Shown here piece after piece: positions 10,466-62,833 of a stretch of DNA of 64,000 bases. Position 1 is the stretch's first letter. Every line of letters starts with the position of its first letter. The stretch comes from Candidatus Iainarchaeum sp. Its GTDB lineage: Archaea > Nanobdellota > Nanobdellia > Pacearchaeales > GW2011-AR1. The notes beneath the pieces were generated by a model. That model was not told the origin of the DNA. It searched no databases and saw only the letters and a list, made by a program, of their open reading frames with translations. Made by a program: the position numbers and the translations under genes. The stretch is from contig JBDRJG010000001.1 in the NCBI GenBank assembly GCA_043815085.1, forward strand, positions 1,594 through 65,593. Reading direction: 5' to 3'.

Positions 10466-11635
10466 TTAGAAAACAAGTTCTTTAGGACCTTTTAAATCAT
10501 CTCTAATCTCTGGATTATCCCGAGGATTATAAGCCCCTTCATTTTTAATTCTTATTTGAGAATCTCTTGTAACATATCCTATTTTCTTTGATTTTATGCC
10601 ATATTCTGACGCAATTTTAATAACTCCTTCTGGATCTGGAGTGATAATCACCATCCCTTGACCCATATTCCAGGTTTTATATGCTTCAATATCTGAAACA
10701 TTTCCTAATGCTTGCGTATACTTCATAAACTCGGACGGTTCAAAAGGAGCGTCTATTATTGCTCCTAATTGGGAAGGTTTTAATATCCTCCCAAGTTTTC
10801 CAGGAACTCCTCCGCCAGTTATATGTGCTACTCCATGAACTTTCGTCTTTGGCTCTCCGTTGTATCCTCCAAACATATCAACAACTGCAGCAGTATAAAT
10901 CTTTGAAGGAGTTAATGCTAGATCTGCTAAACTCGTATTTCCTCTTTTCCAAGGGACTTGATGCCAATTGTCACCATGATTATTTTTCATAATTTTTCTA
11001 ACTAAAGATAAACCATTTGACCTGAATCCTTCTTCTCTCAATCCAACTAAATAATCTCCTTCTTTAATTTCTTTTCCAGTAAACAATCTATCTCTATTAG
11101 CAAACCATACAACCGCCGCTCCCCAATTATAATTAAAGGATCCAAATCCTCCAACCCTGTTTCCAAGTTCAGCTACTTCTCCGTTAACAATTGCTACATT
11201 TGCTGCTTTTGCAGCACCAATGTACCCTTCTGCTAATTGTCTTATCTCTTCAATAAATGGTTTTTCAGAAGTTCCAAGTGAATTAACATCAAGAATTGAA
11301 CCAATTAAAACTGGCTCTGCCCCTCTTACAACTGCATCATCTGTAACCATTGCAAATAAGTCATAAGCGATTGTTCTATGATTCTTGACTCTTTCAGCCA
11401 ATTCCATTTTTGTTCCGACACCATCAAATCCAATATTCATTAAAGTTCCAGTAGGCAAATGAGAAACATCAATTGCTCTAACTCCTGTAAAATCATCAAA
11501 AGGAACAATTACTTCTCCCAATTTTCCTTTTCTATTATCCCAAGTTCGTTTTGCAGCATTATATAAAATTTTAGAAACATCATCGCCCAAATCAATATTC
11601 ACTCCTGAATCTGCATAGGTTGATTTTTGTGCCAT
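10466..11635 (-). CDS. PurM-like protein (AIR synthase-related; phosphoribosylformylglycinamidine cyclo-ligase family)
   Basis: 389 aa. The N-terminus MAQKSTYADSGVNIDLGDD resembles the PurM N-terminus (YKDAGVDIDAG). PurM N- and C-domain architecture is present. Confidence 0.55.
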   Translation of the reverse strand: MAQKSTYADSGVNIDLGDDVSKILYNAAKRTWDNRKGKLGEVIVPFDDFTGVRAIDVSHLPTGTLMNIGFDGVGTKMELAERVKNHRTIAYDLFAMVTDDAVVRGAEPVLIGSILDVNSLGTSEKPFIEEIRQLAEGYIGAAKAANVAIVNGEVAELGNRVGGFGSFNYNWGAAVVWFANRDRLFTGKEIKEGDYLVGLREEGFRSNGLSLVRKIMKNNHGDNWHQVPWKRGNTSLADLALTPSKIYTAAVVDMFGGYNGEPKTKVHGVAHITGGGVPGKLGRILKPSQLGAIIDAPFEPSEFMKYTQALGNVSDIEAYKTWNMGQGMVIITPDPEGVIKIASEYGIKSKKIGYVTRDSQIRIKNEGAYNPRDNPEIRDDLKGPKELVF

Positions 11636-34292: not shown

Positions 34293-35285
34293 ATGGAACC
34301 GCTGTTAATACTCACAATATTTGTTAGTTTTTTCTGTTGTTTTCTTCTAATGCCCTTTTGGATAAGAAAAGCGAAACAAATAGGGCTGGTTTGGGAAGAC
34401 ATGAACAAATTAAATCCTAAAAAGAATGTCGCCGGTTCTGGAGGAATAATTGTTGTATTGAGTACAATGATTGGAATTTTCTTGTACATTGCAATACAAA
34501 CATTTTATTTTAAATCTTCAGATGGAATCTCTATAAGTATTTTTGCTATTCTCAGTTCTATGTTCCTTATAACCGGGGTGGGTTTAATGGACGATTTATT
34601 TGGTTGGAAAAAAGGCGGACTTTCAAAGCGTTCAAGAATTATTCTAATATTGTTATCTGCTGTCCCTTTAATGGTAATTAACGCGGGAGAATCAACAATG
34701 GCTGGAATAAATTTTGGTATACTTTACCCCTTGCTTATTATTCCATTTGGAGTTTTAGGTGCAACAACAACATTTAACTTTTTGGCAGGTTTTAATGGAC
34801 TTGAAGCAAGTCAAGGAATAATTCTATTATCAGCTATGGCAATTCTAACTTCTTTAACAGGGAATCCCTGGCTGAGTGTCGTTGCTTTGTGCATGGTTGC
34901 CTCTCTTATTGCATTTTATATATTCAATAAAAATCCTGCAAAAGTTTTTCCAGGAGATGTCTTAACATATTCTGTAGGAATGATGATTGCAGCCCTTGCA
35001 ATTGTTGGAAATGTGGAGAAAATAGCAGTATTTTTCTTTTTCCCCTATTTGCTTGAGATAATTCTGAAACTTAGGGGAAATCTAAAAAAACAAAGTTTTG
35101 GAAAACCAAACAAAGAGGGGAGCCTTGACATGCCCTATGAGAAGATTTATGGATTGGAACATTTAGCAATATACATTTTAAAGAAAATAAAGCCTAGCAA
35201 AAAAGCCTATGAAAATGAAGTAGTTTTACTAATAAATGGATTTCAAGTTTTGATAATAATCTTAGGATTTTTGTTGTTTCTCTAA
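34293..35285 (+). CDS. aglH: UDP-GlcNAc:dolichyl-phosphate GlcNAc-1-phosphate transferase (MraY/WecA/GPT family; AglH-like)
   Basis: 330 aa polytopic. MDDLFGWKKGG (DDxxD-like), NFLAGFNGLEASQG and VFPGDVLTYSVGMM are MraY/WecA family motifs. Confidence 0.75.
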   Translation: MEPLLILTIFVSFFCCFLLMPFWIRKAKQIGLVWEDMNKLNPKKNVAGSGGIIVVLSTMIGIFLYIAIQTFYFKSSDGISISIFAILSSMFLITGVGLMDDLFGWKKGGLSKRSRIILILLSAVPLMVINAGESTMAGINFGILYPLLIIPFGVLGATTTFNFLAGFNGLEASQGIILLSAMAILTSLTGNPWLSVVALCMVASLIAFYIFNKNPAKVFPGDVLTYSVGMMIAALAIVGNVEKIAVFFFFPYLLEIILKLRGNLKKQSFGKPNKEGSLDMPYEKIYGLEHLAIYILKKIKPSKKAYENEVVLLINGFQVLIIILGFLLFL

Positions 35286-35326: not shown

Positions 35327-38173
35327 ATGGAAAAGGATGAAGGAATAAAAAAATATTTTTTAAAAAATAATTATAATCTTGTTTTTTCAATTTTGGCTTT
35401 TATTGCTATGTTGTTTTTTATAGCCAGTGTTTCAAAAATAGATCTTAAAATTGGAATATTAACCCAAACAGTTGGATTATTTTCTTCAAGTATGTGGTTT
35501 TTACTTTTATTATCTTTAGTAATTTCTTCTGCTCTTTCTTATTTTGAAAAATACAAATGGATAGCTCTTCCTGTTTTTATCTGGCTCTTAATCTTCACGG
35601 CCCAGTTTAGGACTGCTAATATCTCTCAATTAATTGATATTACAACAGGAAATTATACTCTTGGCCCAGATTTGGATCCTTTCCTGTATCTAAGACTTGC
35701 TGAAGACATAAATCAGGGGATTGTTCCAAGTGTAGATTGCATGAGATATGCTCCAATCTGCTCAAATAATTATGCAAAACAAAGTTTAATGCCTTGGGTA
35801 ATTGTTGGATTTTATAAAATAATATCTCTTTTTAAAGAAGCAACTCTTACATATGCTGCGATTATAACTCCAGTAATCTTATTTCTAATTTCCCTCATAG
35901 GATTTTTCCTCTTTGTGAAAACAATTTTCTCTTTCAAAACAGACAAAATAAAATCCTCTGTAATTGCGTTGATTGCAAGCTTTTTCTATGCGGTCTCTCC
36001 TGCAATGCTGCATAGAACAACAGGGGGAATTCCAGAAATAGAAAGTTTGGGCATGGCTTTCTTTTGGTTTGCAATGTTGTTCTTCAGTTTAGCTTGGAAA
36101 AGTGAAAAAAAGAATAAATGGATAATCTTTGGAATAATTGCAGCATTATTCACAGAATTAATGTCTTTTTCCTGGGGGGGATATAGGTACCTCTATCTGA
36201 TATTCTCTCTGACGGCCTTTGTAATATTTTTCTTAGAAAAAGATATTAAAAAAAATATTATCATATTTTCTTCGTGGTTTATACCTGCAGTAATAATTGA
36301 AATTATAAAATCCAAGGGCATCCAAGGAGTAATAATGAGTATTTCTGGTACAGGAGCTGCTGTAATAATCTTCTTATTATTATTCTTACAAGCTATATTT
36401 ATAAAATTCAAATTAGGAAATAGGTTTAAAAAAATAAATATTCCAAACAACTTAAAAATATTGATTTTAGCAATTATCCTTGGAATAGTGGGTTTATTGG
36501 TTATAAATCCCAAATTACTAATAGATCTCCCTTCCACAATAATTAGGGGACTTTTATCTCCTTTTGGAAGTGCAAGAGTAAGTTTAACTGTTGCTGAGAA
36601 TAGTTCTCCCTATTTTCCTGCAGTAATCTCTCAATTTGGATATATTCTCTGGGCATTTTTAATTTCAACTGTTATTCTATTCTACGAATCAGTAAAACAC
36701 TTTGAGAAAAAAGATAAAGTAAAATTAATTTCATCTTTCATTATTTTTATTTCCTGTATTTCTTTTACAAGAATCTCTTCAACTAGCATGTTAAATGGTG
36801 AAAATGCAATTTCCAAATTTATATTTTTTGCAGGATTTATAATCTTTGCATTAACTATTCTAAATGTGTATGTAAAATCTTATAAAAAGGGGGAAGATTT
36901 AGAAGTATTCAAGAAAATAGATTTTTCTTACATTTTACTCTTAACATTTTCTTTTTGGGCAATAATCTCAATGAGGGGGGCTGTAAGATTATTCTTTATA
37001 GTTTCTCCAATGATAATTCTTGTGGCTTCTGTGCTTCCAGTAAGGTTATACGAAATAAGAAAAAGGTCAAGAGATGATTTACTTAAACTAATTATAATTA
37101 TATTATTAGTTATAGTGACTTTAATCTTCCTCTACACTTTTATTCAATATACTTCTTCTGTGGTATATGAAGCAAAATCAACTGTTCCTGGCATCTACGA
37201 ACAGCAATGGCAAAATGCAATGTCTTGGGTAAGAGAAAATACTGCAATTGGTTCTATTTTTGTTCATTGGTGGGATTATGGATATTGGGTTCAAACAATC
37301 GGAGAAAGACCAACTGTAACAGACGGGGGGCATTTCACTGCTTATTGGGACCACCTAATAGGAAGGTACTTGCTGACAACTCCTTCTCCTGAAACAGCAT
37401 TGAGTTTTATGAAAGCTCACAATGTTTCATATTTGCTTATTGATTCTACAGATTTAGGAAAGTATACTGCATATAGCAGCATAGGAAATGATGAATCAGG
37501 AGGGGATAGATATTCTTGGCTGCCTATAATGCAATCAAGCCCTTCACAAATACAAGAAACACAAAATGGAACAATAAAAATATATTCTGGAGGATTTGGA
37601 CTTGATGAAGATATTATATATGAAAAAGATGGAAAAGAAAATTTATTGTCAAAATCAAAAACAGGTTTGGGGGGGGTAGTTCTAGAATATGTGGGCAATT
37701 CAATAAACCAACCAGAAGGAGTTTTTATACAAAATGGAAATCAAATAAGACTTCCATTAAGATATGCCTATTATAATAAAAATCTTTATGATTTTAAAGA
37801 AGGAATTGAAGCAACAGTAATGATACTTCCTTCCATGACAAATGATGCAACTTCAGGAGTAAAGATTGATTATACAGGAGCAATGATTTATTTATCTAAT
37901 AAAACTAGAAACGGTTTATTTGCACAACTATATCTTATGGATGATTCTCTAAAACAATATCCAACTGTAAAAATTTCACATGTTGAACAGGATGTTATAA
38001 TCGATTATCTTAATGCTCAAGGAGCAAATCTAGAGTTTGTATATTACGGGGGATTTAGAGGGCCTATTAAAATATGGGAAGTGAATTATCCTGAGAACAT
38101 AATTGCAAAAGAGGAATTTCTAAGAATGTCTGGAAAATACGCTGAATTTGATAACCTCACTTTTGTAAAATGA
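35327..38173 (+). CDS. aglB: archaeal oligosaccharyltransferase AglB (STT3 family)
   Basis: 948 aa. Roughly 13 N-terminal TM helices plus a C-terminal soluble domain. The diagnostic WWDYGYW motif is present (VHWWDYGYWVQTIG). Confidence 0.85.
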   Translation: MEKDEGIKKYFLKNNYNLVFSILAFIAMLFFIASVSKIDLKIGILTQTVGLFSSSMWFLLLLSLVISSALSYFEKYKWIALPVFIWLLIFTAQFRTANISQLIDITTGNYTLGPDLDPFLYLRLAEDINQGIVPSVDCMRYAPICSNNYAKQSLMPWVIVGFYKIISLFKEATLTYAAIITPVILFLISLIGFFLFVKTIFSFKTDKIKSSVIALIASFFYAVSPAMLHRTTGGIPEIESLGMAFFWFAMLFFSLAWKSEKKNKWIIFGIIAALFTELMSFSWGGYRYLYLIFSLTAFVIFFLEKDIKKNIIIFSSWFIPAVIIEIIKSKGIQGVIMSISGTGAAVIIFLLLFLQAIFIKFKLGNRFKKINIPNNLKILILAIILGIVGLLVINPKLLIDLPSTIIRGLLSPFGSARVSLTVAENSSPYFPAVISQFGYILWAFLISTVILFYESVKHFEKKDKVKLISSFIIFISCISFTRISSTSMLNGENAISKFIFFAGFIIFALTILNVYVKSYKKGEDLEVFKKIDFSYILLLTFSFWAIISMRGAVRLFFIVSPMIILVASVLPVRLYEIRKRSRDDLLKLIIIILLVIVTLIFLYTFIQYTSSVVYEAKSTVPGIYEQQWQNAMSWVRENTAIGSIFVHWWDYGYWVQTIGERPTVTDGGHFTAYWDHLIGRYLLTTPSPETALSFMKAHNVSYLLIDSTDLGKYTAYSSIGNDESGGDRYSWLPIMQSSPSQIQETQNGTIKIYSGGFGLDEDIIYEKDGKENLLSKSKTGLGGVVLEYVGNSINQPEGVFIQNGNQIRLPLRYAYYNKNLYDFKEGIEATVMILPSMTNDATSGVKIDYTGAMIYLSNKTRNGLFAQLYLMDDSLKQYPTVKISHVEQDVIIDYLNAQGANLEFVYYGGFRGPIKIWEVNYPENIIAKEEFLRMSGKYAEFDNLTFVK

Positions 38174-43667: not shown

Positions 43668-44939
43668 ATGGAAAAAGAAGGTGGTCTGAAAAAATATTTA
43701 ATTAATCCCCCATCTCCATTTTTAATTGATGAAAAGGTGTTTCCAAATCTAGGTTTGATAAGTTTAGCCACTTCACAAGACTTGGATATTATTGATTTTT
43801 CTGGAGATAAAAATTTTGAAGAAACGGCAAAGAAAATTAATGGTGATTGGTTTGGTTTTTATTCAACAACCCCCCAATTCCCCACGACTTACAAAATTTT
43901 CAAAGAAATTAAAAAGAATAACCCCCATGCAAAATTTGTAATTGGCGGGCCTCATGCTTCTGCGGTTTATAATTTAGATAAAGAAGATATAAACAAAAAA
44001 AGAATAGAAGAGTTTGACTTTATTTTTGTAGGAGAAGCTGAAAAGGAAATTGAATTAAAAAACAAATACAATTTTTCCAAGCTTATTAAAAATATTGATG
44101 AAATAAAGATTCCAAATAGAAATAAAGTAAAAATAGAGGAATACCATTATAATATACTTGGTAAAAAGACCACAACAATTATGACTCAAAGAGGTTGCCC
44201 ATTCCAATGTGTTTTCTGTTCAGGTAGAGAAGTTGAGATGTATAACAAAGTAAGACAACATTCTGCAAATAGAATCCTCGAGGAAATGGATTATTTAAAT
44301 TCTGAATTTGGATATGAAGCTTTTATGTGGTATGACGATGAAATAAATACAAACCCCGGAAGATTGGAAGAGATAGCATATTTACTTAAAAAAAGAAATT
44401 ATATCCATAGAGGATTTGTAAAGAGCGATTTAATTGTAAAAAATCCAAAGAGCCTTGATTATCTAGCAGATATGGGTTTTGTTGAATTGTGTTTTGGGTG
44501 TGAAAGTGGAAGTAACAGAATACTCGAAGCAGTCGGCAAAGGAACAAATTATGATATAAATCTAAAAGCAACTAAATTAATAAAAGAAAGAGGAATGAAA
44601 ACAAAGGTTTTCATGATGGTTGGATTGCCTGATGAAAATTATGAAGACGTTATGCTAACTAAAAAGTGGTTAGAAGAAGCTAAACCCGATGATTTTGATA
44701 TTACCATCCTTAATCCTTATCCTGGCTCAAAAATATATAATCTTGCAAAGCCTACAAAAGAATTAAATGGATATAATTTTGAGTATAATGGTTTGTTCTT
44801 TAATAAGATAGATTTCGCAAAGGATGATTCTTTTTATAAAGGAAAGATTGGAGAGTATCCTTGTTCTGTGAGGACAAAAAGTTTGACATCAGAAGAGATA
44901 GTTAATCTAAGAGAAAATATTGAAAAAGATTTAAAATGA
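43668..44939 (+). CDS. B12-binding domain radical SAM protein (class B)
   Basis: 423 aa. N-terminal cobalamin-binding Rossmann-like domain. CxxxCxxC (MTQRGCPFQCVFCSG). Confidence 0.75.
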   Translation: MEKEGGLKKYLINPPSPFLIDEKVFPNLGLISLATSQDLDIIDFSGDKNFEETAKKINGDWFGFYSTTPQFPTTYKIFKEIKKNNPHAKFVIGGPHASAVYNLDKEDINKKRIEEFDFIFVGEAEKEIELKNKYNFSKLIKNIDEIKIPNRNKVKIEEYHYNILGKKTTTIMTQRGCPFQCVFCSGREVEMYNKVRQHSANRILEEMDYLNSEFGYEAFMWYDDEINTNPGRLEEIAYLLKKRNYIHRGFVKSDLIVKNPKSLDYLADMGFVELCFGCESGSNRILEAVGKGTNYDINLKATKLIKERGMKTKVFMMVGLPDENYEDVMLTKKWLEEAKPDDFDITILNPYPGSKIYNLAKPTKELNGYNFEYNGLFFNKIDFAKDDSFYKGKIGEYPCSVRTKSLTSEEIVNLRENIEKDLK

Positions 44940-50121: not shown

Positions 50122-51633
50122 TTATTTTCTCTTAAATATGCCCTTAATTAATCCAAAATCTTCTCTATTTATCCCTTTTGTTAATATTAAAACTCCAAAA
50201 TAAACTCCTGCCCCCAGGATTATTTCCAATACCCCGAAGAATAGATTCATATTAATAAAATGGCTAAAAGCTAATAAAAAAATAGACATTATTGCTGTTG
50301 CAAATATTGGGCTCCTTAAGCCAATCCCCTTAACTTTAAAATTAAATTCTTTTTTTGCATAAAAGACAAGTAAACCTAACAAAAGTATTCTACTAAGAGA
50401 GGTTGCTAATCCAACCCCCGCCATCATAAATAAAGGATTATTTTTAAATAAAAAGATTACTAAAACATTTAACAAAATGTTTATAAATAAAGAGAAAAGA
50501 ACTGATTTGCTTACTATTTGTGGTTTTTCTTTTGATTGGAAGATTATTGAATATAATCCAATTAGAGGAGTTGTAACTATCAAAAGAGCTAAAAAATAAA
50601 GGGGGATTGTTCCAAGAATATATTCATTTCCATAAATTGCCTTAATTAAATATTTAGCTATAAAAATCATCCCTGCAGTTGCGGGTATTGAAATAATTAA
50701 TATGTACCTCAAAGTCTTGTGAAATCCTCTGCTAAATCTTTTTCCATTTATCTGGGTAAAAATTGGAAGAAATATACCCGACAAAGAAAATAAAGCGGCA
50801 ATTGTAAGAACTAAACTCAGTGCTACCCTATAATATCCTAAATATTCAAATGCAACAAATTTACCCAACATTAATGTATCCACAGAACCAAAAAATACAA
50901 GAGAAAGGCTAGCAACCCCCATAAACTCTAAAAATTTCAAAACCTTTTTTTTGTTTATGTATACTTTTGGACCAAAAAATAAATTTCTATCTCTTTTAAA
51001 TAATATTAAGATTGTTATAAACAAAACAATCGCTCCTGAAACGAAAAATGCTATAAATAAACCCGAAACCTTAAAAGCATCTGAAAGAATCATGAGTGCT
51101 AACAAAGAAAATGAAATCTTAAAAATTTGATAAAAAACACCTAATATTGTTGGAATCCTTAGTTCTTTTAGTGCAAGAAAAAAAGTGGAAAAGAAATTCC
51201 AAAAAGACTCCATAATTAAAAAGAGGCAAGAAAAGATTAAGGGGTAAAATAATAAAGGATTTTGATATAATTTATAAGAGATTAGCTTTGACAAAATAAT
51301 TACCATAACAACGACTATAAAAACTGCCAAAACTTTTATCCTTAATAAAAATCTGAAATAAGAGCGTGCCTGAGATATCTTTCTCCTGCCGATGGAAATT
51401 GATAAATATCTTAACAGAGTATCATCTAATCCAAAATTTGTAAAGACCATAAATATTGCTATTATTGACAAAACTAAAGAATAAACACCAAATAATTCTG
51501 GTAAAAGCATTCTTGCAATAATTATAGTAAAAATTAATCCTCCAATTTTTAGGATTATGCTAGAAAATAAATTGTAACCTGTATTTTTCACAGATACTTT
51601 TGACAGATTTTGATTATTTATGCCTACTTCCAT
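50122..51633 (-). CDS. oligosaccharide flippase (MOP/Wzx-like polysaccharide biosynthesis protein)
   Basis: 503 aa, about 14 TM helices. Typical Wzx/MATE-like topology in a glycan cluster. Confidence 0.65.
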   Translation of the reverse strand: MEVGINNQNLSKVSVKNTGYNLFSSIILKIGGLIFTIIIARMLLPELFGVYSLVLSIIAIFMVFTNFGLDDTLLRYLSISIGRRKISQARSYFRFLLRIKVLAVFIVVVMVIILSKLISYKLYQNPLLFYPLIFSCLFLIMESFWNFFSTFFLALKELRIPTILGVFYQIFKISFSLLALMILSDAFKVSGLFIAFFVSGAIVLFITILILFKRDRNLFFGPKVYINKKKVLKFLEFMGVASLSLVFFGSVDTLMLGKFVAFEYLGYYRVALSLVLTIAALFSLSGIFLPIFTQINGKRFSRGFHKTLRYILIISIPATAGMIFIAKYLIKAIYGNEYILGTIPLYFLALLIVTTPLIGLYSIIFQSKEKPQIVSKSVLFSLFINILLNVLVIFLFKNNPLFMMAGVGLATSLSRILLLGLLVFYAKKEFNFKVKGIGLRSPIFATAIMSIFLLAFSHFINMNLFFGVLEIILGAGVYFGVLILTKGINREDFGLIKGIFKRK

Positions 51634-51736
51634 CTTTTTATAAGAAAACCTTTATTTTTAAAGATAAGTAAGTAGGATATAAAACTATAAGATAACCTCA
51701 ATAAAGATTAAAAAGGGTAAAGTATCTTAAAAATAT

Positions 51737-51880
51737 ATGGCAGATATTTTATGTACAATCATGGGTGTTATGGATATAATTGCCGGAATATTAATTATTC
51801 TTAATTTTGGAAACAATATTCTCGGAATTATTTTTGGCATTGCGATGATTGGAAAAGGGGGATTTAGTTTGATAGGATGA
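51737..51880 (+). CDS. small hydrophobic peptide (47 aa) translationally coupled to the downstream radical SAM gene
   Basis: Manual translation gives MADILCTIMGVMDIIAGILIILNFGNNILGIIFGIAMIGKGGFSLIG. It is Gly/Ile-rich with a C-terminal GKGG. Its TGA stop overlaps the ATG of the 51877 gene (ATGA). It is absent from the ORF track because it is under 60 aa. Confidence 0.5.
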   Translation: MADILCTIMGVMDIIAGILIILNFGNNILGIIFGIAMIGKGGFSLIG

Positions 51881-53301
51881 AAAATTCTAAAGATAAAGTT
51901 TTGCTGGTGACTAGTAGTTGTGAGGATACCCCTTTTGTTCCTGAAGGTAGATTTAATGAACTATCCCATTATCCTATTGGTTTAGCATATTTATATTCTT
52001 ATATTGAATCAAAGGGATTTGATGTTAAAATGCTCTCCCATAATCATAAATCAGATAAAGATTGTTTTAAAGAAGTTATAGAAGAAATAGAAAATTTTTC
52101 TCCAGACATTGTTGGTTTTCAAATATTAACTTCAAACAGAGTTAGTAGCTATCATTTAATTGAATATATACATCAAAATTATCCAAAAATTAAAATAATA
52201 GTCGGGGGGATTCATGTTACAATAATGTATAAACAATTAATTGAAAAATATCCTTTTTTAATAGCAGTTCTGGGTGAGGGTGAAATAACTTTGTTTGAAT
52301 TGATTAAGGAATTAGATAAAAAAAGCCCCAATCTTAAGAAAATTGATGGACTTGGATTTTATAAAAACAATAGCGTAATGAGAACAAAACCAAGAAAATT
52401 AATAGAAAATTTAGATACTCTGCCTTTTCCAAAGCATGAACTATTTTTTAAAAATCCTAAAAGAGATTCTGGATGTCTCTTAACTTCAAGGGGGTGTTAT
52501 TTCTCATGTAGTTTTTGTTGTTTAAATCCAGAAGCAAAAAGAATTGTAAGATTTAGGTCTCCAAAAAACGTTGTTGATGAAATAGAATATATGGTTAAAA
52601 GTTTTCCACAAATGACAGAAATATTCATACATGATGATTCTTTTTTTAGCAACAATGAAAGAGTTATAAAAATTTGTGATGAAATAATTAAGCGAAAAAT
52701 AAAAATGAATTTTGTGTGTGAAGGTAGAATTAAGCCTATAAGCAGCGAAATGATTAAAAAACTGGAACAAGCTAATTTTAAAAGAGTTCTATTGGGTATA
52801 GAAAGTGGAGACAATGGAATTTTAAAGGCTTGCCATAAGGGAATAAATCAAGAAGATATATTGCATGCCTTCAAATTATTTTCAAAATCTTCTATAAATC
52901 TTAAAACACTTTTGATTATTGGTCTGCCCGGAGAAAATATAGGAACAATAAAAGAAACTGTCAGATTTATAAAAAAATGCCAAAAAATAAAATATGTTTC
53001 TTATGGTAATATCAAACCCCTACTAATGGTTTTTCCTGGAACAGAAGTTTATGAAATTGCAAAGTCAAAGGGAATGATTAATGATAATTATTGGCTCTCT
53101 GAAAAAGTAATTCCTCTATATACTATAGAAAACAGTTATGAAAGACTGAAAGAACTTGGGAATATCCTCTTAGATAATATTGCTTTTAGCAGAATAATCA
53201 CTCCAAAAGGATTTAGAGCTCAATTTGATATGATTCCTTATTTAACAAAATATTTACTAATTAAAGTGATGGAAAAAATAAAAAAAGATATTAAAGATTA
53301 A
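51877..53301 (+). CDS. B12-binding domain radical SAM protein (class B), paralog A
   Basis: 474 aa. DIVGFQILTSNRVSSYHLIEYIHQNYPKIKIIVGGIHVT is the B12-binding domain. CxxxCxxC is SRGCYFSCSFCC. Confidence 0.75.
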   Translation: MKNSKDKVLLVTSSCEDTPFVPEGRFNELSHYPIGLAYLYSYIESKGFDVKMLSHNHKSDKDCFKEVIEEIENFSPDIVGFQILTSNRVSSYHLIEYIHQNYPKIKIIVGGIHVTIMYKQLIEKYPFLIAVLGEGEITLFELIKELDKKSPNLKKIDGLGFYKNNSVMRTKPRKLIENLDTLPFPKHELFFKNPKRDSGCLLTSRGCYFSCSFCCLNPEAKRIVRFRSPKNVVDEIEYMVKSFPQMTEIFIHDDSFFSNNERVIKICDEIIKRKIKMNFVCEGRIKPISSEMIKKLEQANFKRVLLGIESGDNGILKACHKGINQEDILHAFKLFSKSSINLKTLLIIGLPGENIGTIKETVRFIKKCQKIKYVSYGNIKPLLMVFPGTEVYEIAKSKGMINDNYWLSEKVIPLYTIENSYERLKELGNILLDNIAFSRIITPKGFRAQFDMIPYLTKYLLIKVMEKIKKDIKD

Positions 53302-53326
53302 AAAGGATAAATTATCTTAAAAATAT

Positions 53327-53347
53327 ATGGCAGATGGGAGGATTTAG
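53327..53347 (+). pseudogene. internally deleted remnant of the 47-aa peptide gene (MADGRI*)
   Basis: ATGGCAGAT + GGGAGGATTTAGTTT retains the first 9 nt and the last roughly 15 nt of the 51737-51880 ORF. It has the same upstream motif ATCTTAAAAATATATGGCAGAT. Confidence 0.45.
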
Positions 53348-53356
53348 TTTTATATA

Positions 53357-54790
53357 ATGAAAAATTTTAAAAATAAAGTTTTGCTGATAACAAGCAGTTT
53401 TGAAGACCTTTTGACAGATGAAGGAAAGATGACTGAGGAATGGGGTGAAGAAACATATTACCCCTTGGGGTTGGCTTATATACATTCTTATCTTGAATCT
53501 AAAGGTATGGAGGTAGAGACCCTCTGGCTTAATCACAAACCATATGAGAATTGCTTTAAAGAAGTAATTGATAAGGTAAAATATTTTGCTCCTGATGTTG
53601 TGGGTTTTCAAATGCTAACTTGTAATAGGGTGAGTAGTTATTATCTGATTGAATGGATACATAAAAATTATCCTAAAATTAAAATAGTCCTTGGAGGAAT
53701 TCATTCTACGATAATGTATAAACAATTAATTGAAAAATATCCTTTCTCAATAACAGTGCTTGGTGACGGTGAAATAACTCTCTTTAAACTTATAAAAGAA
53801 TTGAACAAAAAAAGCCCCAATCTTAAAAAGATTGATGGAATTGCATTCTATAAAAATAATAGTGTAATAAGAACAAAGGCAAGAAAATTAATAGAAGATT
53901 TGGACAGTCTACCTTTCCCCAAGCATGAAGTATTTTTTAATTATAGTAAAAGATGGACTGGTAGTTTGTTAAGTACAAGGGGATGTCCTAATGCATGTAG
54001 TTTTTGTTGCCTAAATCCTGAGTCTAAGAGGATTGTAAGATTCAGAGATCCTAAAAAAGTTGTGGATGAAATAGAATATATGATAAATAAATTCCCCCAG
54101 ATGAAAGAACTTTCCATAAACGACGATTCTTTTTTTGTTAATAATCAAAAAGTAATAGATATTTGCAATGAGATAATAAAGAGAAAGATAAAAATGGATT
54201 TTGTGTGTAGTGGGAGAATTAAACCAATAAGTAAAGAAGTTGTTGAAAAACTTGAAGAAGCCAATTTTATAAGGGTTACACTTGGTATAGAAAGTGGAGA
54301 TGATGGGATATTAAAATCCTGCCATAAAGGAATAAACCAAGAAGATATTCTAAAGGCATTTAAATTATTTTCTAAATCAAATATACATCTTAAAACCTAT
54401 TTAATCATCGGTTTACCTGGAGAAAGTATAGAAACAATAAAAGAAACTGCCAGATTTATAAGAAAATTACAAAAAATAAAATATGTATCCTATCCTACCT
54501 GTTTCAATATTCTTTTTGTTTATCCCGGAACAGAAGTTTATGAGATTGCTAAATCAAAAGGATTTATTGATGATGAGTTTTGGCTTGCTGACAAGCAGAT
54601 TCCATTATATACTGCAGAAAACAGTTATGAAAAGCTGAAAGAATTTGAAAAAATCCTCGCGGATAATCTATCTTTTTATAGGATAATGACTCCGAAAGGG
54701 TTTAAGGCCCAATTTGAAACTATCCCTTACTTATTAAAATATGGTTTTCAAAGAATAGCGACGCTGTTAAAAAAAGGAAGATTGCTCTAA
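53357..54790 (+). CDS. B12-binding domain radical SAM protein (class B), paralog B (tandem duplicate of 51877-53301)
   Basis: 477 aa. It is collinear with paralog A along the whole length, by eye roughly 70% identical. CxxxCxxC is TRGCPNACSFCC. Confidence 0.75.
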   Translation: MKNFKNKVLLITSSFEDLLTDEGKMTEEWGEETYYPLGLAYIHSYLESKGMEVETLWLNHKPYENCFKEVIDKVKYFAPDVVGFQMLTCNRVSSYYLIEWIHKNYPKIKIVLGGIHSTIMYKQLIEKYPFSITVLGDGEITLFKLIKELNKKSPNLKKIDGIAFYKNNSVIRTKARKLIEDLDSLPFPKHEVFFNYSKRWTGSLLSTRGCPNACSFCCLNPESKRIVRFRDPKKVVDEIEYMINKFPQMKELSINDDSFFVNNQKVIDICNEIIKRKIKMDFVCSGRIKPISKEVVEKLEEANFIRVTLGIESGDDGILKSCHKGINQEDILKAFKLFSKSNIHLKTYLIIGLPGESIETIKETARFIRKLQKIKYVSYPTCFNILFVYPGTEVYEIAKSKGFIDDEFWLADKQIPLYTAENSYEKLKEFEKILADNLSFYRIMTPKGFKAQFETIPYLLKYGFQRIATLLKKGRLL

Positions 54791-54833: not shown

Positions 54834-55547
54834 ATGAAATCTCTAGCAAGATATTTTTATAAAATAAGAAGTTTTCTACCAAATATTAAGCGAAATAAAC
54901 TTTATAATTTTATAAAGAGTTTATTAGTGTATGATGAAAATGAAAAGAATATTTTAAGAGCTTTAGAGTTTGTGAAGCTGAATGATTTAGAAGGAGATTA
55001 TGCAGAATTTGGGGTTTATAATGGAGAGAGTTTTATTATTGCATGTTATTTCTCCAAGTTTTTTAAATTAAAAAACATGAAATTTTATGCATTCGATAGT
55101 TTTGAAGGATTACCTAGTCCAGAAAAAGAAGATTTGGGATTTTATTGGAAAGAGGGAGATTGTAATTGTTCTCTTGAGAAATTTAAAAGTAATCTTAAAA
55201 AAGCAAAAGTTGATTTAAATGGAGTAGTAAGTATAAAAGGGTGGTATAATGAAACTTTAAAAAAGGGTAAGAAATATGGAATCAAAAAGCTTGCTTTTAT
55301 CCATGTTGATTGTGATTATTACTCTTCTACAAAACTAGTGTTTGAATATATAAAACCCTTTTTACAAGAAGGAACTGTTATTCTATTTGATGATTGGTAT
55401 TGCTATAATGCAAGCGCTGAGGAAGGAGAACAGAAGGCATTTGGAGAGTTCTTAAAGAAAAACAAACATATTTCGTTTATAGATTTTCCAGCAGAGGGTC
55501 TGAAAAAAATGTTTATATGTCAAAAAATAGGCAAGAAATATGCATGA
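54834..55547 (+). CDS. TylF/MycF-family (macrocin O-methyltransferase-like) SAM-dependent O-methyltransferase
   Basis: 237 aa. FIHVDCDYYSSTKLVFEYIKPFLQEGTVILFDDW is the TylF family signature. Confidence 0.65.
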   Translation: MKSLARYFYKIRSFLPNIKRNKLYNFIKSLLVYDENEKNILRALEFVKLNDLEGDYAEFGVYNGESFIIACYFSKFFKLKNMKFYAFDSFEGLPSPEKEDLGFYWKEGDCNCSLEKFKSNLKKAKVDLNGVVSIKGWYNETLKKGKKYGIKKLAFIHVDCDYYSSTKLVFEYIKPFLQEGTVILFDDWYCYNASAEEGEQKAFGEFLKKNKHISFIDFPAEGLKKMFICQKIGKKYA

Positions 55548-61411: not shown

Positions 61412-62833
61412 ATGAAAGTATTGTTTGTTTATCATAATAGGGTAGAAGATGGTTATATGCCCCAAGTAATCGCCATTTTAGGAGGAGCACTCAAACAAGA
61501 AGGAATAGAAACTAAATTCTTTGATACAACTTTTTACAGAGATAAAAACGATATTTTTATAAATAACGATAGAAAAGTTAGAGAATCTCAAAAAAAAGGA
61601 GGGTACCAACCTGTCCAAGGATTCGGCTTTGAAAGAGAGGTAGTCGACCTCAAAGAAAAATTTTTAGAAGTAGTAGAAGAATACAAACCAGATTTAATTG
61701 CTGCAACTTCTACATCTTTTGAGTTTAATTCTCTTTTGGATTTTATCCTTCCGGCTAAAAAGAAATTTAATGTTCCTGTTATTGTGGGGGGATCACATGC
61801 CACAGTGGTTCCTGAAAAAGCAATCCAGAAAGAGGGGGTTGATTTTATATGTGTCGGACAAGGAGAGAAACCCTTACTTGAACTTGTCCGAAGAATGGAA
61901 AATAGAGGAGATATCACAACTATCCCTAGTCTGTGGATTAAATCTCCTAACGGAGAAATAATAAGAAATAAAATTGGGCTGCAAATTGAAAATATGGATG
62001 ATACTCCCGAAGCAGATTGGGATTTAATAGATGAAAGACACAGGATACGGCCATTTGAGGGTGAAGTAAAAAGATATGGTTGGTTTGAGATAAGCAGAGG
62101 ATGCCCTTATAGCTGTAGTTATTGTATTAATTCAAAATTGCACAAAATAGAGCTAGAGGGGGGAGTAAAACCTGGAGCTTATAGATTTTTTTCCCCAAAA
62201 GAGATAATAAGAAGAATGAAAAAATATAAAGAAAAATATGGTTTTAATCATGTGCAGTGTATAGATGAAAATATGGCTGCAATGCCTTTAGAGAAATTAA
62301 AGGAACTTGCTAAACTATACAAAGAAAATATAGGGTGTAGTTTTTTCACACAAAGCAGACCCGAATGTTTTGTTACGAGTCCCGAAAAAGCAAAAATAAT
62401 GGCTGAAATGGGTTGTAAGATGGTTGGTCTTGGTGTTGAAAGTGGAAATGAGGAATTGCGTAGGACCATACTAAATAGGCCAATGAAAGATGGAATTGTT
62501 GAGGAGGCTGTAAGAATATTAAAAAACTCTGGAATTATGGTTGCGACATATTATATTATAGGATTTCCAACTGAAACAGAAGAGATGATTAAACAGACTA
62601 TTGATTTACATAGAAGAATACAACCAGATAGATTTTCTGTTAGATTTTTACATCCTTTCCCAGGAACATCTATAAGAAATATTTGTGTTAAAGAAGGATA
62701 TATTTCAGATAATTATGAGGATATTAATTCGGATGCTTCTTTTTTCAGAGACCCAGTTTTAAATCTTCCTTCTCCTCCACACCCTACAAAAGAAAGACTA
62801 AAAGAGCTGAGAGAAGAATTTGAGAGATATTAA
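61412..62833 (+). CDS. B12-binding domain radical SAM protein (class B)
   Basis: 473 aa. N-terminal B12-binding domain (PDLIAATSTSFEFNSLLDFI...VIVGGSHAT). CxxxCxxC is ISRGCPYSCSYC. Confidence 0.75.
   Translation: MKVLFVYHNRVEDGYMPQVIAILGGALKQEGIETKFFDTTFYRDKNDIFINNDRKVRESQKKGGYQPVQGFGFEREVVDLKEKFLEVVEEYKPDLIAATSTSFEFNSLLDFILPAKKKFNVPVIVGGSHATVVPEKAIQKEGVDFICVGQGEKPLLELVRRMENRGDITTIPSLWIKSPNGEIIRNKIGLQIENMDDTPEADWDLIDERHRIRPFEGEVKRYGWFEISRGCPYSCSYCINSKLHKIELEGGVKPGAYRFFSPKEIIRRMKKYKEKYGFNHVQCIDENMAAMPLEKLKELAKLYKENIGCSFFTQSRPECFVTSPEKAKIMAEMGCKMVGLGVESGNEELRRTILNRPMKDGIVEEAVRILKNSGIMVATYYIIGFPTETEEMIKQTIDLHRRIQPDRFSVRFLHPFPGTSIRNICVKEGYISDNYEDINSDASFFRDPVLNLPSPPHPTKERLKELREEFERY

Follow-up and report, generated by a model that had tools for sequence, protein, structure and literature searches.

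Alg14 (with Alg13) and Ost4 are examples of small membrane subunits in glycosylation. Such subunits are also partners of catalytic Dpm1, and in yeast the role of Dpm3 is filled by a transmembrane domain at the C terminus of Dpm1 itself (PMC7728079). Among class-B radical S-adenosylmethionine (SAM) enzymes, C-methylation of sugars is known for GenK and GenD1 of gentamicin biosynthesis, and AprD4, GenK, and GenD1 act on sugars (PMC4039129, PMC5819394). The pairing of a small peptide with a B12-dependent radical SAM (rSAM) enzyme is a classic signature of ribosomally synthesized, post-translationally modified peptides (RiPPs) (PMC4632189). Here, an archaeal locus is described that combines a small hydrophobic protein with enzymes of this class. 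It is found on a stretch of 64,000 nucleotides (nt) of Candidatus Iainarchaeum sp. (assembly GCA_043815085.1, contig JBDRJG010000001.1, positions 1,594 to 65,593), hereafter termed the window, and consists of a 47-codon open reading frame (ORF) followed by two tandem genes for predicted class-B enzymes, rSAM1 and rSAM2. The ORF is almost certainly a real and conserved gene for a membrane mini-protein, whereas the view that this protein is a functional partner of the two enzymes is held at about an even chance.

The 47-codon ORF and its protein family

The ORF extends from 51737 to 51880 on the + strand, is the first cistron of its operon, and encodes MADILCTIMGVMDIIAGILIILNFGNNILGIIFGIAMIGKGGFSLIG, a predicted two-helix membrane mini-protein of 47 amino acids (aa). 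Its TGA stop codon lies inside the ATG start codon of rSAM1, resulting in an ATGA overlap (51877-51880). An earlier reading of the DNA, made from the sequence alone and termed here the sequence-only reading, had drawn attention to this arrangement, and it was found as described. The same reading had considered the ORF unannotated, which fits the data: the protein database contains rSAM1 (at 100% identity) and rSAM2 as NCBI entries from the same organism, labelled there Candidatus Diapherotrites (DPANN archaea), and no protein identical to the peptide of the window, so that the peptide has probably never been annotated.

Homologs of the mini-protein were readily detected. A word-indexed search of 5.8 billion proteins returned seven close homologs (64-98% identity, all 46-54 aa long), 1.84 billion cluster representatives searched exhaustively with a profile gave 29 clusters (50% identity) at E<=1e-3, nearly all with 42-63 aa, and the profile search with a broadened alignment identified 70 family members. 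Named members stem from Pacearchaeota, Nanoarchaeia, Aenigmatarchaeota, and metagenome-assembled genomes labelled as unclassified 'archaeon'; the family is found mainly in DPANN archaea. All six orthologs compared, at nucleotide identities of 56-85%, have the frame open, and no fewer than 10 other lineages conserve it intact. Differences at codon positions 1, 2, and 3 among the six orthologs number 193, 108, and 341, the third position thus dominating, and the pairwise ratios of nonsynonymous to synonymous substitution rates (dN/dS) range from 0.06 to 0.40, with synonymous sites near saturation. Residues M9, D13, K40, and G41 are invariant in 31 diverse members, and G10, A16, G17, M37, and S44 are nearly so. 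Judged by these sequence data, the mini-protein gene is a real gene under purifying selection; the lack of conservation or the dN/dS close to 1 by which the sequence-only reading would have recognized a fortuitous ORF was not seen.

That the ORF is a chance open frame within a duplicated promoter region has therefore a next to negligible probability. Short ORFs are plentiful in AT-rich genomes (here, 8.5 kb contain 45 that reach 30 aa or more), the antisense frame, too, lacks stops in each of the six orthologs, and the chance of a 47-codon open frame at 30% GC, as estimated from base composition, is about 2%. However, frame, protein sequence, and ATGA junction have been kept down to 56% nucleotide identity, some of the approximately 70 homologs occur in unrelated contexts, and the structural model discussed below is confident. 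The null hypothesis of a fortuitous ORF was consequently rejected on the basis of homologs, open frame, and purifying selection. The antisense frame over the gene (51727-51840, - strand) is stop-free in all six orthologs and amounts to an ORF of 37 aa in the window; its openness probably follows from the hydrophobic codons used on the sense strand. A tblastn search with the peptide revealed no second copy in the window, and no peptide-like or other conserved small ORF was detected upstream of the distant rSAM paralogs at 43668 and 61412.

Gene callers handle the family poorly. In the following, the fetched loci of relatives carry L numbers and individual proteins P numbers. In L013 the peptide gene was missed, and in L007 the rSAM ORF was wrongly started too far upstream, so that it runs through the peptide gene in a different frame; the actual peptide ORF (1258-1398) overlaps the rSAM start. 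The resulting protein P0036 (L007:1272-2831), like P0038, is a 517-519-aa 'rSAM' protein with a Cys/Trp/Asn-rich N-terminal extension of about 40 aa, and the extension of P0038 is probably the same annotation artefact. As a separate observation, the family members P0142 and P0147 have their first residue where Met9 lies. Another TATA-like element, CTTAAAAATAT, is located directly before the peptide ATG (within 51728-51763), about 32 nt upstream of the internal Met9 codon, and a 39-aa isoform from this internal start is conceivable.

The peptide has a grand average of hydropathy of 1.68 and two hydrophobic stretches. AlphaFold2, supplied with a 31-sequence alignment, predicts a helix-turn-helix hairpin (H4-24 / H28-46) with a mean predicted local distance difference test score (pLDDT) of 88.8, in which the invariant residues lie within the helices, namely, the Asp in helix 1 and the Lys-Gly pair in helix 2. 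No significant Pfam or NCBIfam family was obtained for the peptide, and the sub-threshold matches were to the unspecific transmembrane-hairpin families DoxX, DUF417, and DUF308. Several results point toward the last of these families. In the exhaustive search, the family profile matched P0152, a three-repeat DUF308 protein (110.9 bits to PF03729), with E=1.7e-4, and hhalign against DUF308 gave E=8.9e-5 at a probability of 59.6%, values for which convergence of short hydrophobic hairpins is possible. The DUF308 gathering score of 25 bits was not reached by family members, the best being P0195 with 16.2 bits and P0170 with 14.4 bits, and DUF308 matches were seen for 3 of the 8 closest homologs, all with E>=0.033. 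Relatives of about 90 aa contain two hairpins in tandem, and three family members are labelled 'HdeD (DUF308 family)' by JGI, the label being otherwise 'hypothetical'. The description that fits the mini-protein best is that of a lone hairpin similar to a single DUF308/HdeD repeat, without formal assignment to the family. The HdeD literature searched dealt with acid resistance only.

Association with class-B radical SAM genes and a glycan island

The two enzymes are encoded in tandem on the + strand, rSAM1 (474 aa) at 51877-53301 and rSAM2 (477 aa) at 53357-54790, and share 69.6% protein identity. Both match the Pfam families Radical_SAM (77.5 and 87.3 bits; cut-off 29.5) and B12-binding (78.9 and 62.9 bits; cut-off 32.1), and the cysteines of the CxxxCxxC motif (C207, C211, and C214) are invariant in 62 homologs. 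The AlphaFold2 model of rSAM1 has a pLDDT of 93.9 and a predicted template modelling (TM) score of 0.91. Its closest solved folds are OxsB, CysS, TsrM, TokK, MgmA, and AprD4, with 17-22% identity, Foldseek E values of 1e-18 to 3e-23, and query-normalised TM-scores of 0.57-0.70; the best mutual TM-score was that to AprD4 (0.70/0.73), which has the same fold and is not known to use cobalamin. The named class-B subfamilies HpnJ, BchE, PhpK, ladderane-lipid rSAM, BzaD, HpnR, and the methyl-coenzyme M reductase Gln methylase were scored, and the comparison with class-B subfamilies that the sequence-only reading had proposed gave a divided answer: the domains of the class are present, but every curated NCBIfam cut-off was missed. 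Equivalog scores were 149-155 bits against 577.6 for HpnJ, 141-160 against 481.35 for BchE, and 133-136 against 600 for PhpK, and the RiPP models ApyD (123.5-136.7 bits against 750) and rSAM_ocin_1 (101.7-108.3 against 281.85) were likewise not reached. On these grounds rSAM1 and rSAM2 are assigned to the class-B radical SAM enzymes as members of an uncharacterized subfamily with predicted cobalamin binding. In a neighbor-joining tree of the rSAM proteins, the r1 clade comprises rSAM1 of the window, the enzyme of L001, and the first rSAMs of L013, L014, and L016, whereas the r2 clade comprises rSAM2, the enzyme of L007, the second rSAMs of L013, L014, and L016, and the first rSAM of L017. Because r1 and r2 form separate orthologous clades, the rSAM duplication predates these lineages.

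Six-frame translations of all fetched loci were scanned with the hidden Markov model of the peptide. The sequence-only reading had proposed to look for peptide ORFs beside homologous rSAM genes, and these do recur: an rSAM gene is adjacent in 9 of 11 distinct contexts and in about four of six independent arrangements. An intact peptide ORF that ends in ATGA at the rSAM start is present in L001-3, L007, L013, L014, L015, and L019. The overlap is located upstream of r1 in the window, L001, L013, L014, L019, and, as a remnant, L016, and upstream of r2 in L007. This conserved stop/start overlap is consistent with a translationally coupled pair, as had been proposed, and its conservation in relatives supports the proposal; its specificity is another matter, since exact 4-nt overlaps occur in six further same-strand gene pairs of the genome. 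As such overlaps are common, the ATGA junction alone says little, and the informative signal is an adjacency that survives rearrangement.

Several rearrangements of this kind were identified. The junction of flippase and peptide genes is syntenic in L001, L007, L013, L014, L016, and L019. L001 carries r1 only and L007 r2 only, and the peptide with its ATGA overlap is kept in both; the gene upstream in L007 is the orthologous flippase (57% identity), so that this locus is best read as a loss of r1. In L001, a TylF/Methyltransf_24-type gene follows the rSAM gene, as in the window. The peptide gene of L004-6 is convergent with a family rSAM gene, with 7 nt between the stop codons, and that of L020 begins 8 nt after another radical SAM gene. 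The order is reversed in L028-32, where an rSAM gene (53% identity to rSAM1) is followed by a peptide gene (43%) that overlaps its stop by ATGA, and then by a Methyltransf_24 gene; no flippase was present within 4 kb in L028. There are also rSAM homologs that stand alone: four viral-labelled contigs carry homologs at 42% identity and no peptide, and a locus search with rSAM1 alone returned three metagenome and two genome loci, all distant and peptide-less. The association of mini-protein and rSAM is thus strong but facultative. The idea that a C-terminal extension of the rSAM substitutes for the peptide was discarded, as no clean pattern emerged and L028 has a 506-aa rSAM in addition to the peptide.

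The reversed trio of L028-L031 and L032 (IMGVR_UViG_3300031673_000011, 86,566 bp) is situated on a contig that IMG/VR classes as viral, and a scan of viral contigs with the rSAM alignment recovered one viral-labelled locus that carries the peptide, whereas a tblastn scan with the peptide alignment, for whose filter the peptide is too short, gave no match. The trio is found there amid many small ORFs without a Pfam match, and PHROGs searches with the neighbors in L028 were equivocal, a LemA-like protein matching a 'virion structural protein' family. This contig could represent a DPANN virus with glycan-modifying genes or a misclassified DPANN contig.

The sequence-only reading had placed the module in an N-glycan island, and the surrounding genes bear this out. 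The island encodes an AglH/WecA-type transferase (34293-35285), STT3/AglB (35327-38173), glycosyltransferases (GT) of the families GT1, GT2, and GT10, a UDP-galactopyranose mutase (GLF), nucleotidyltransferases, and the Wzx/MurJ-type polysaccharide flippase (50122-51633, - strand; Pfam Polysacc_synt, Polysacc_synt_3, and MurJ), which is divergent from the peptide operon. Four SAM methyltransferase genes start at 38170, 40138, 41877, and 54834; the last of these (54834-55547, + strand; Pfam TylF and Methyltransf_24) follows rSAM2 and ends the same-strand run. Two further B12-binding radical SAM genes, at 43668-44939 and 61412-62833, encode proteins about 25% identical to rSAM1, so that four class-B rSAM genes are found within about 19 kb in addition to the four methyltransferase genes, which suggests a heavily methylated glycan and a notable cobalamin demand in a reduced genome. 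Among the scanned island genes there was no protease or ABC exporter.

Bacterial homologs of the two enzymes (about 50-58% identity) are also encoded in glycan clusters, there without the peptide; for the homologs at 50-52% identity, the gene order is GT2, GT10, rSAM, GT11, GT11, GT2 in L008 and epimerase, GNAT, GT, rSAM, carbamoyltransferase, GT11 in L011. Because the rSAM family associates with glycan clusters, its substrate would be a sugar or lipid-linked glycan rather than a peptide. P0115 (751 aa) is an rSAM-family homolog fused to an FkbM-type methyltransferase domain (PF05050). Together with the TylF/Methyltransf_24 neighbors, this fusion gives a hint that one substrate is shared by the rSAM and a methyltransferase of the O- or another type. 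Relatives also contain fusions that are absent from the window, namely, a GT10 fucosyltransferase-GT2 protein of 655 aa (L014:1280-3247) and an epimerase/dehydratase-DegT aminotransferase protein of 764-784 aa (L014:9050-11344; L016:9012-11366).

Expression signals and history of the module

Promoter signals were evaluated for the 45 window genes with an upstream spacer of at least 40 nt. A TATA-like hexamer starts at -29, -28, and -27 in 7, 14, and 17 of them, respectively. Archaeal TATA boxes are located about 26-27 nt upstream of the transcription start, so that a register of -27 to -29 from the ATG points to mRNAs that for the most part lack a leader. Most promoter-proximal genes likewise have a (C)TTTAAAAA-like box starting 27-29 nt ahead of the ATG, e.g., upstream of 1335-2441, 10466-11635, 30003, 47015, and 50122-51633, and there is little Shine-Dalgarno signal in the window. 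At the peptide gene, TTAAAA is found at -29 from the ATG, inside AAAGATTAAAAAGG (51703-51716; -34 to -21). This element is present at the same distance and in exact form in L001 and L013, and as close variants in L007, L016, and L019. Judged by these signals, the peptide gene most probably occupies the 5' end, as the first cistron, of a leaderless operon that is divergent from the flippase gene. In Rfam searches near the locus, no riboswitch or other RNA was detected, the only match being a tRNA.

The sequence-only reading had further described a second module directly downstream that has the same upstream motif and has lost its peptide gene, and a gapped global alignment of the regions upstream of rSAM1 and rSAM2 supports much of this account. 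The first promoter block (51700-51745, + strand, 46 nt), which contains the B recognition element/TATA-like AAAGATTAAAAAGG and the first 9 nt of the peptide ORF, and the second block (53290-53335, + strand, 46 nt), which overlaps the final codons and the stop of rSAM1, are identical at 43 of 46 positions, the shared block being longer than had been noticed. Copy 2 then lacks 110 nt (corresponding to 51746-51855), where a deletion of roughly 100 nt had been estimated; this number is not a multiple of 3, and the frame is shifted. Past the gap, 51856-51900 and 53336-53380 agree at 38 of 45 positions. The remnant of the second peptide gene (53327-53356, + strand) thus consists of the start and first three codons joined to the last ~21 nt and reads, as had been proposed, ATG GCA GAT GGG AGG ATT TAG (53327-53347), i.e., MADGRI followed by a stop codon 9 nt before the ATG of rSAM2; the sequence GGGAGGA is kept 15 nt before this ATG. 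The TATA box is in the register described above relative to the remnant ATG (53327) and not relative to that of rSAM2. Since both ends of the deleted gene are found in copy 2, a duplication of the entire module followed by the loss of one peptide copy is supported, but the duplication is ancient and not a recent local event.

The conservation of the two blocks stands out. The coding DNA of rSAM1 and rSAM2 is 74.7% identical, and 0.7% of the 45-nt coding windows reach 93%; an identity of 43/46 in a non-coding block thus suggests either selective constraint on a functional promoter or gene conversion. The r1-r2 spacers of L013, L014, and L016 have 36-70 nt and are far more diverged than the 93%-identical block pair of the window, for which either recent gene conversion in this lineage or stronger selection is possible. 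The spacer of L014 contains a diverged block with seemingly the same GGCAGAT/G junction, which suggests that the deletion of the copy-2 peptide is old.

A second deletion was identified in L016 (4939-5004), where the peptide gene upstream of r1 has been cut in frame by 75 nt (25 codons). The remnant of 21 aa, MINSPYTLMGIADIIV-RISLI followed by the stop codon, still ends in ATGA. The deletions in copy 2 of the window and copy 1 of L016 are independent. In each case the promoter, the ATG, and the final ~21 nt have survived, a GGAGG or GAGG element and the ATAT(G)A junction included. The retained pieces may now serve the expression of the downstream rSAM gene, by leaderless initiation, translation of a short ORF, and reinitiation.

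Proposed function and comparison with known systems

In the reading that we favor, and to which we give an even chance, the mini-protein is a functional partner of the rSAMs. The mini-protein, rSAM1, rSAM2, and TylF-like methyltransferase genes would form, in this order, a leaderless operon transcribed from the TATA box 29 nt upstream of the mini-protein ATG, divergent from the glycan flippase gene, and rSAM1 would be translated by termination-reinitiation at the ATGA overlap. The mini-protein would bind the otherwise soluble class-B rSAMs and keep them at the cytoplasmic face of the membrane, where, ahead of the action of the flippase and AglB, they would alter a sugar of the dolichol-linked N-glycan precursor, C-methylation or some other radical reaction being the most likely chemistry. 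The whole module would have been duplicated long ago and the second mini-protein copy then deleted, its promoter, start codon, and last ~21 nt probably being kept for the expression of rSAM2. Within this scheme, the physical interaction, membrane tethering, substrate, and chemistry are inferred, and the specific tethering mechanism is less certain than the partnership.

A number of observations weigh against such a partnership. Homologs of the rSAMs occur without the peptide in the bacterial loci L008 and L011 as well as in L017/18 and L033-36. The peptide gene in turn immediately precedes a Wzx-type flippase gene in L021-24 (P0143), where no rSAM gene lies within 4 kb, and has neither an rSAM nor a flippase nearby in L025-27 (P0189). 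L016 keeps both rSAMs intact next to a 21-aa peptide remnant, which weakens an obligatory role of the peptide. The common occurrence of ATGA overlaps in this compact genome deprives the coupling of specificity, the r1-clade loci are for the most part syntenic and so amount to a single evolutionary observation, leaving only about six independent arrangements, and the chemistry of the rSAMs is not assigned by family, as they score below all curated subfamily cut-offs. These data leave room for a less probable though serious alternative, in which the mini-protein is an independent small membrane component of glycan assembly or export, acting for example with the Wzx-type flippase, or a general membrane protein, and its proximity to rSAM genes reflects only operon compaction in a very small genome. 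The flippase indeed adjoins the mini-protein in the window and all syntenic relatives and is its direct neighbor in L021, neither gene accompanies it in L025, ATGA overlaps are not particular to this pair, and the remote DUF308/HdeD relatives are stand-alone membrane proteins with no known enzyme partner. What speaks for the partnership instead is that rSAM adjacency survives four rearrangements, including that of L028 with no flippase within 4 kb, and that the mini-protein stays with the surviving rSAM where one paralog was lost (L001 and L007).

The sequence-only reading had left the choice between RiPP maturation and a small membrane partner, and the data favor the latter. A RiPP-type substrate, i.e., a hydrophobic peptide that both class-B rSAMs C-methylate in a polytheonamide-like manner to give a membrane-active product, is very unlikely, in spite of the classic gene pairing, the partial similarity of the rSAMs to the RiPP methylase models ApyD and rSAM_ocin_1, the Gly-, Ile-, and Val-rich peptide, and the presence of two rSAM paralogs. 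The RiPP models score 101.7-136.7 bits against cut-offs of 281.85-750, and HpnJ and BchE, which relate to lipid and porphyrin, score at least as high; Pfam detected B12-binding and Radical_SAM domains and no RiPP recognition element (RRE) or SPASM domain, and the scanned island genes include no protease or exporter. In addition, the 46-47 aa are evenly conserved, without a leader/core split and with the invariant D13 and K40 inside predicted helices, the peptide occurs without rSAM and the rSAM family without peptide in bacterial glycan clusters, both rSAMs of L016 are intact beside a truncated peptide, and the relatives with tandem-duplicated hairpins look like structural membrane proteins. 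An equally slight chance is given to a leaderless RiPP variant, in which the TylF-like enzyme possibly methylates the peptide further and the product inserts into the membrane, its gene being located in the N-glycan island and on the putative viral contig. Somewhat less improbable is that the ORF acts mainly in cis, its translation delivering ribosomes to the rSAM start or the mRNA to the membrane while the peptide itself has little function. The two independent deletions, in which the promoter, ATG, and terminal ~21 nt were spared and which end at or near an rSAM start, would fit this view, as would the need of internal genes for coupling in a leaderless architecture; the strong purifying selection at the amino acid level with its invariant residues, and family members that are downstream of, convergent to, or far from any rSAM, do not. 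A cis effect complements the partner model more than it competes with it, as a trans-acting protein may at the same time provide the coupling.

The limited literature search found nothing specific on cobalamin rSAMs in DPANN archaea or on rSAMs in polysaccharide clusters, no characterized class-B rSAM assigned to cell-surface glycan clusters, and no description of the link between this mini-protein family and a class-B rSAM subfamily of glycan clusters. Accessory membrane subunits of small size are a known kind, as are class-B rSAMs, and the system is thus not categorically new. For the DPANN archaea, with their small genomes and many unknowns, the analysis adds a conserved and mostly unannotated mini-protein family that gene callers miss or mis-call, and that is tied genetically to an rSAM subfamily widespread in cell-surface glycan clusters of DPANN archaea and bacteria of the candidate phyla radiation (CPR), typically beside fucosyltransferases. 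If the partner model is true, a radical SAM enzyme would be recruited to the membrane by a dedicated micro-subunit to act on a lipid-linked glycan, and these ultra-small symbionts would spend scavenged cobalamin on surface decoration. With its intact module, deleted module, paralog losses, and reversed order, the locus is also a natural experiment on downstream translation in leaderless operons.

Compared with DUF308/HdeD proteins (PF03729, 'short repeat of unknown function'), the mini-protein has the same hairpin of two hydrophobic helices with the motif …G.l.IiaGil.l… / …l.fG..li.kG..s…. It differs in consisting of one isolated repeat of 46-47 aa, where DUF308 proteins have at least three, and in its linkage to radical SAM genes, no such link being known for HdeD; the resemblance supplies no mechanism for the mini-protein. 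PoyA/PoyBC, PqqA/PqqE, and the TsrM pathway share with this locus a short ORF beside, and translationally coupled with, a radical SAM gene, but neither a leader/core organization nor an RRE or SPASM domain, protease, or exporter was detected here, where the enzyme family is glycan-linked and often peptide-free. The working analogy is that of Dpm2/Dpm3 with Dpm1, Alg14 with Alg13, and Ost4 in the oligosaccharyltransferase, in which a tiny transmembrane protein partners a catalytic subunit acting on dolichol-linked intermediates. The mini-protein shares no sequence relationship with Dpm2/Dpm3, Alg14, or Ost4, its partner would be a radical SAM enzyme and not a glycosyltransferase, and the interaction is hypothetical. 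We know of no solved class-B rSAM that has been described with a dedicated small membrane subunit. The class-B rSAMs of known structure have the same layout as rSAM1 and rSAM2, with a B12-binding Rossmann domain at the N terminus and, after it, a radical SAM barrel containing the CxxxCxxC motif, whereas rSAM1 and rSAM2, at about 475 aa, are shorter than most characterized members and belong to cell-surface glycan clusters of DPANN archaea and CPR bacteria and not to antibiotic or cofactor pathways.

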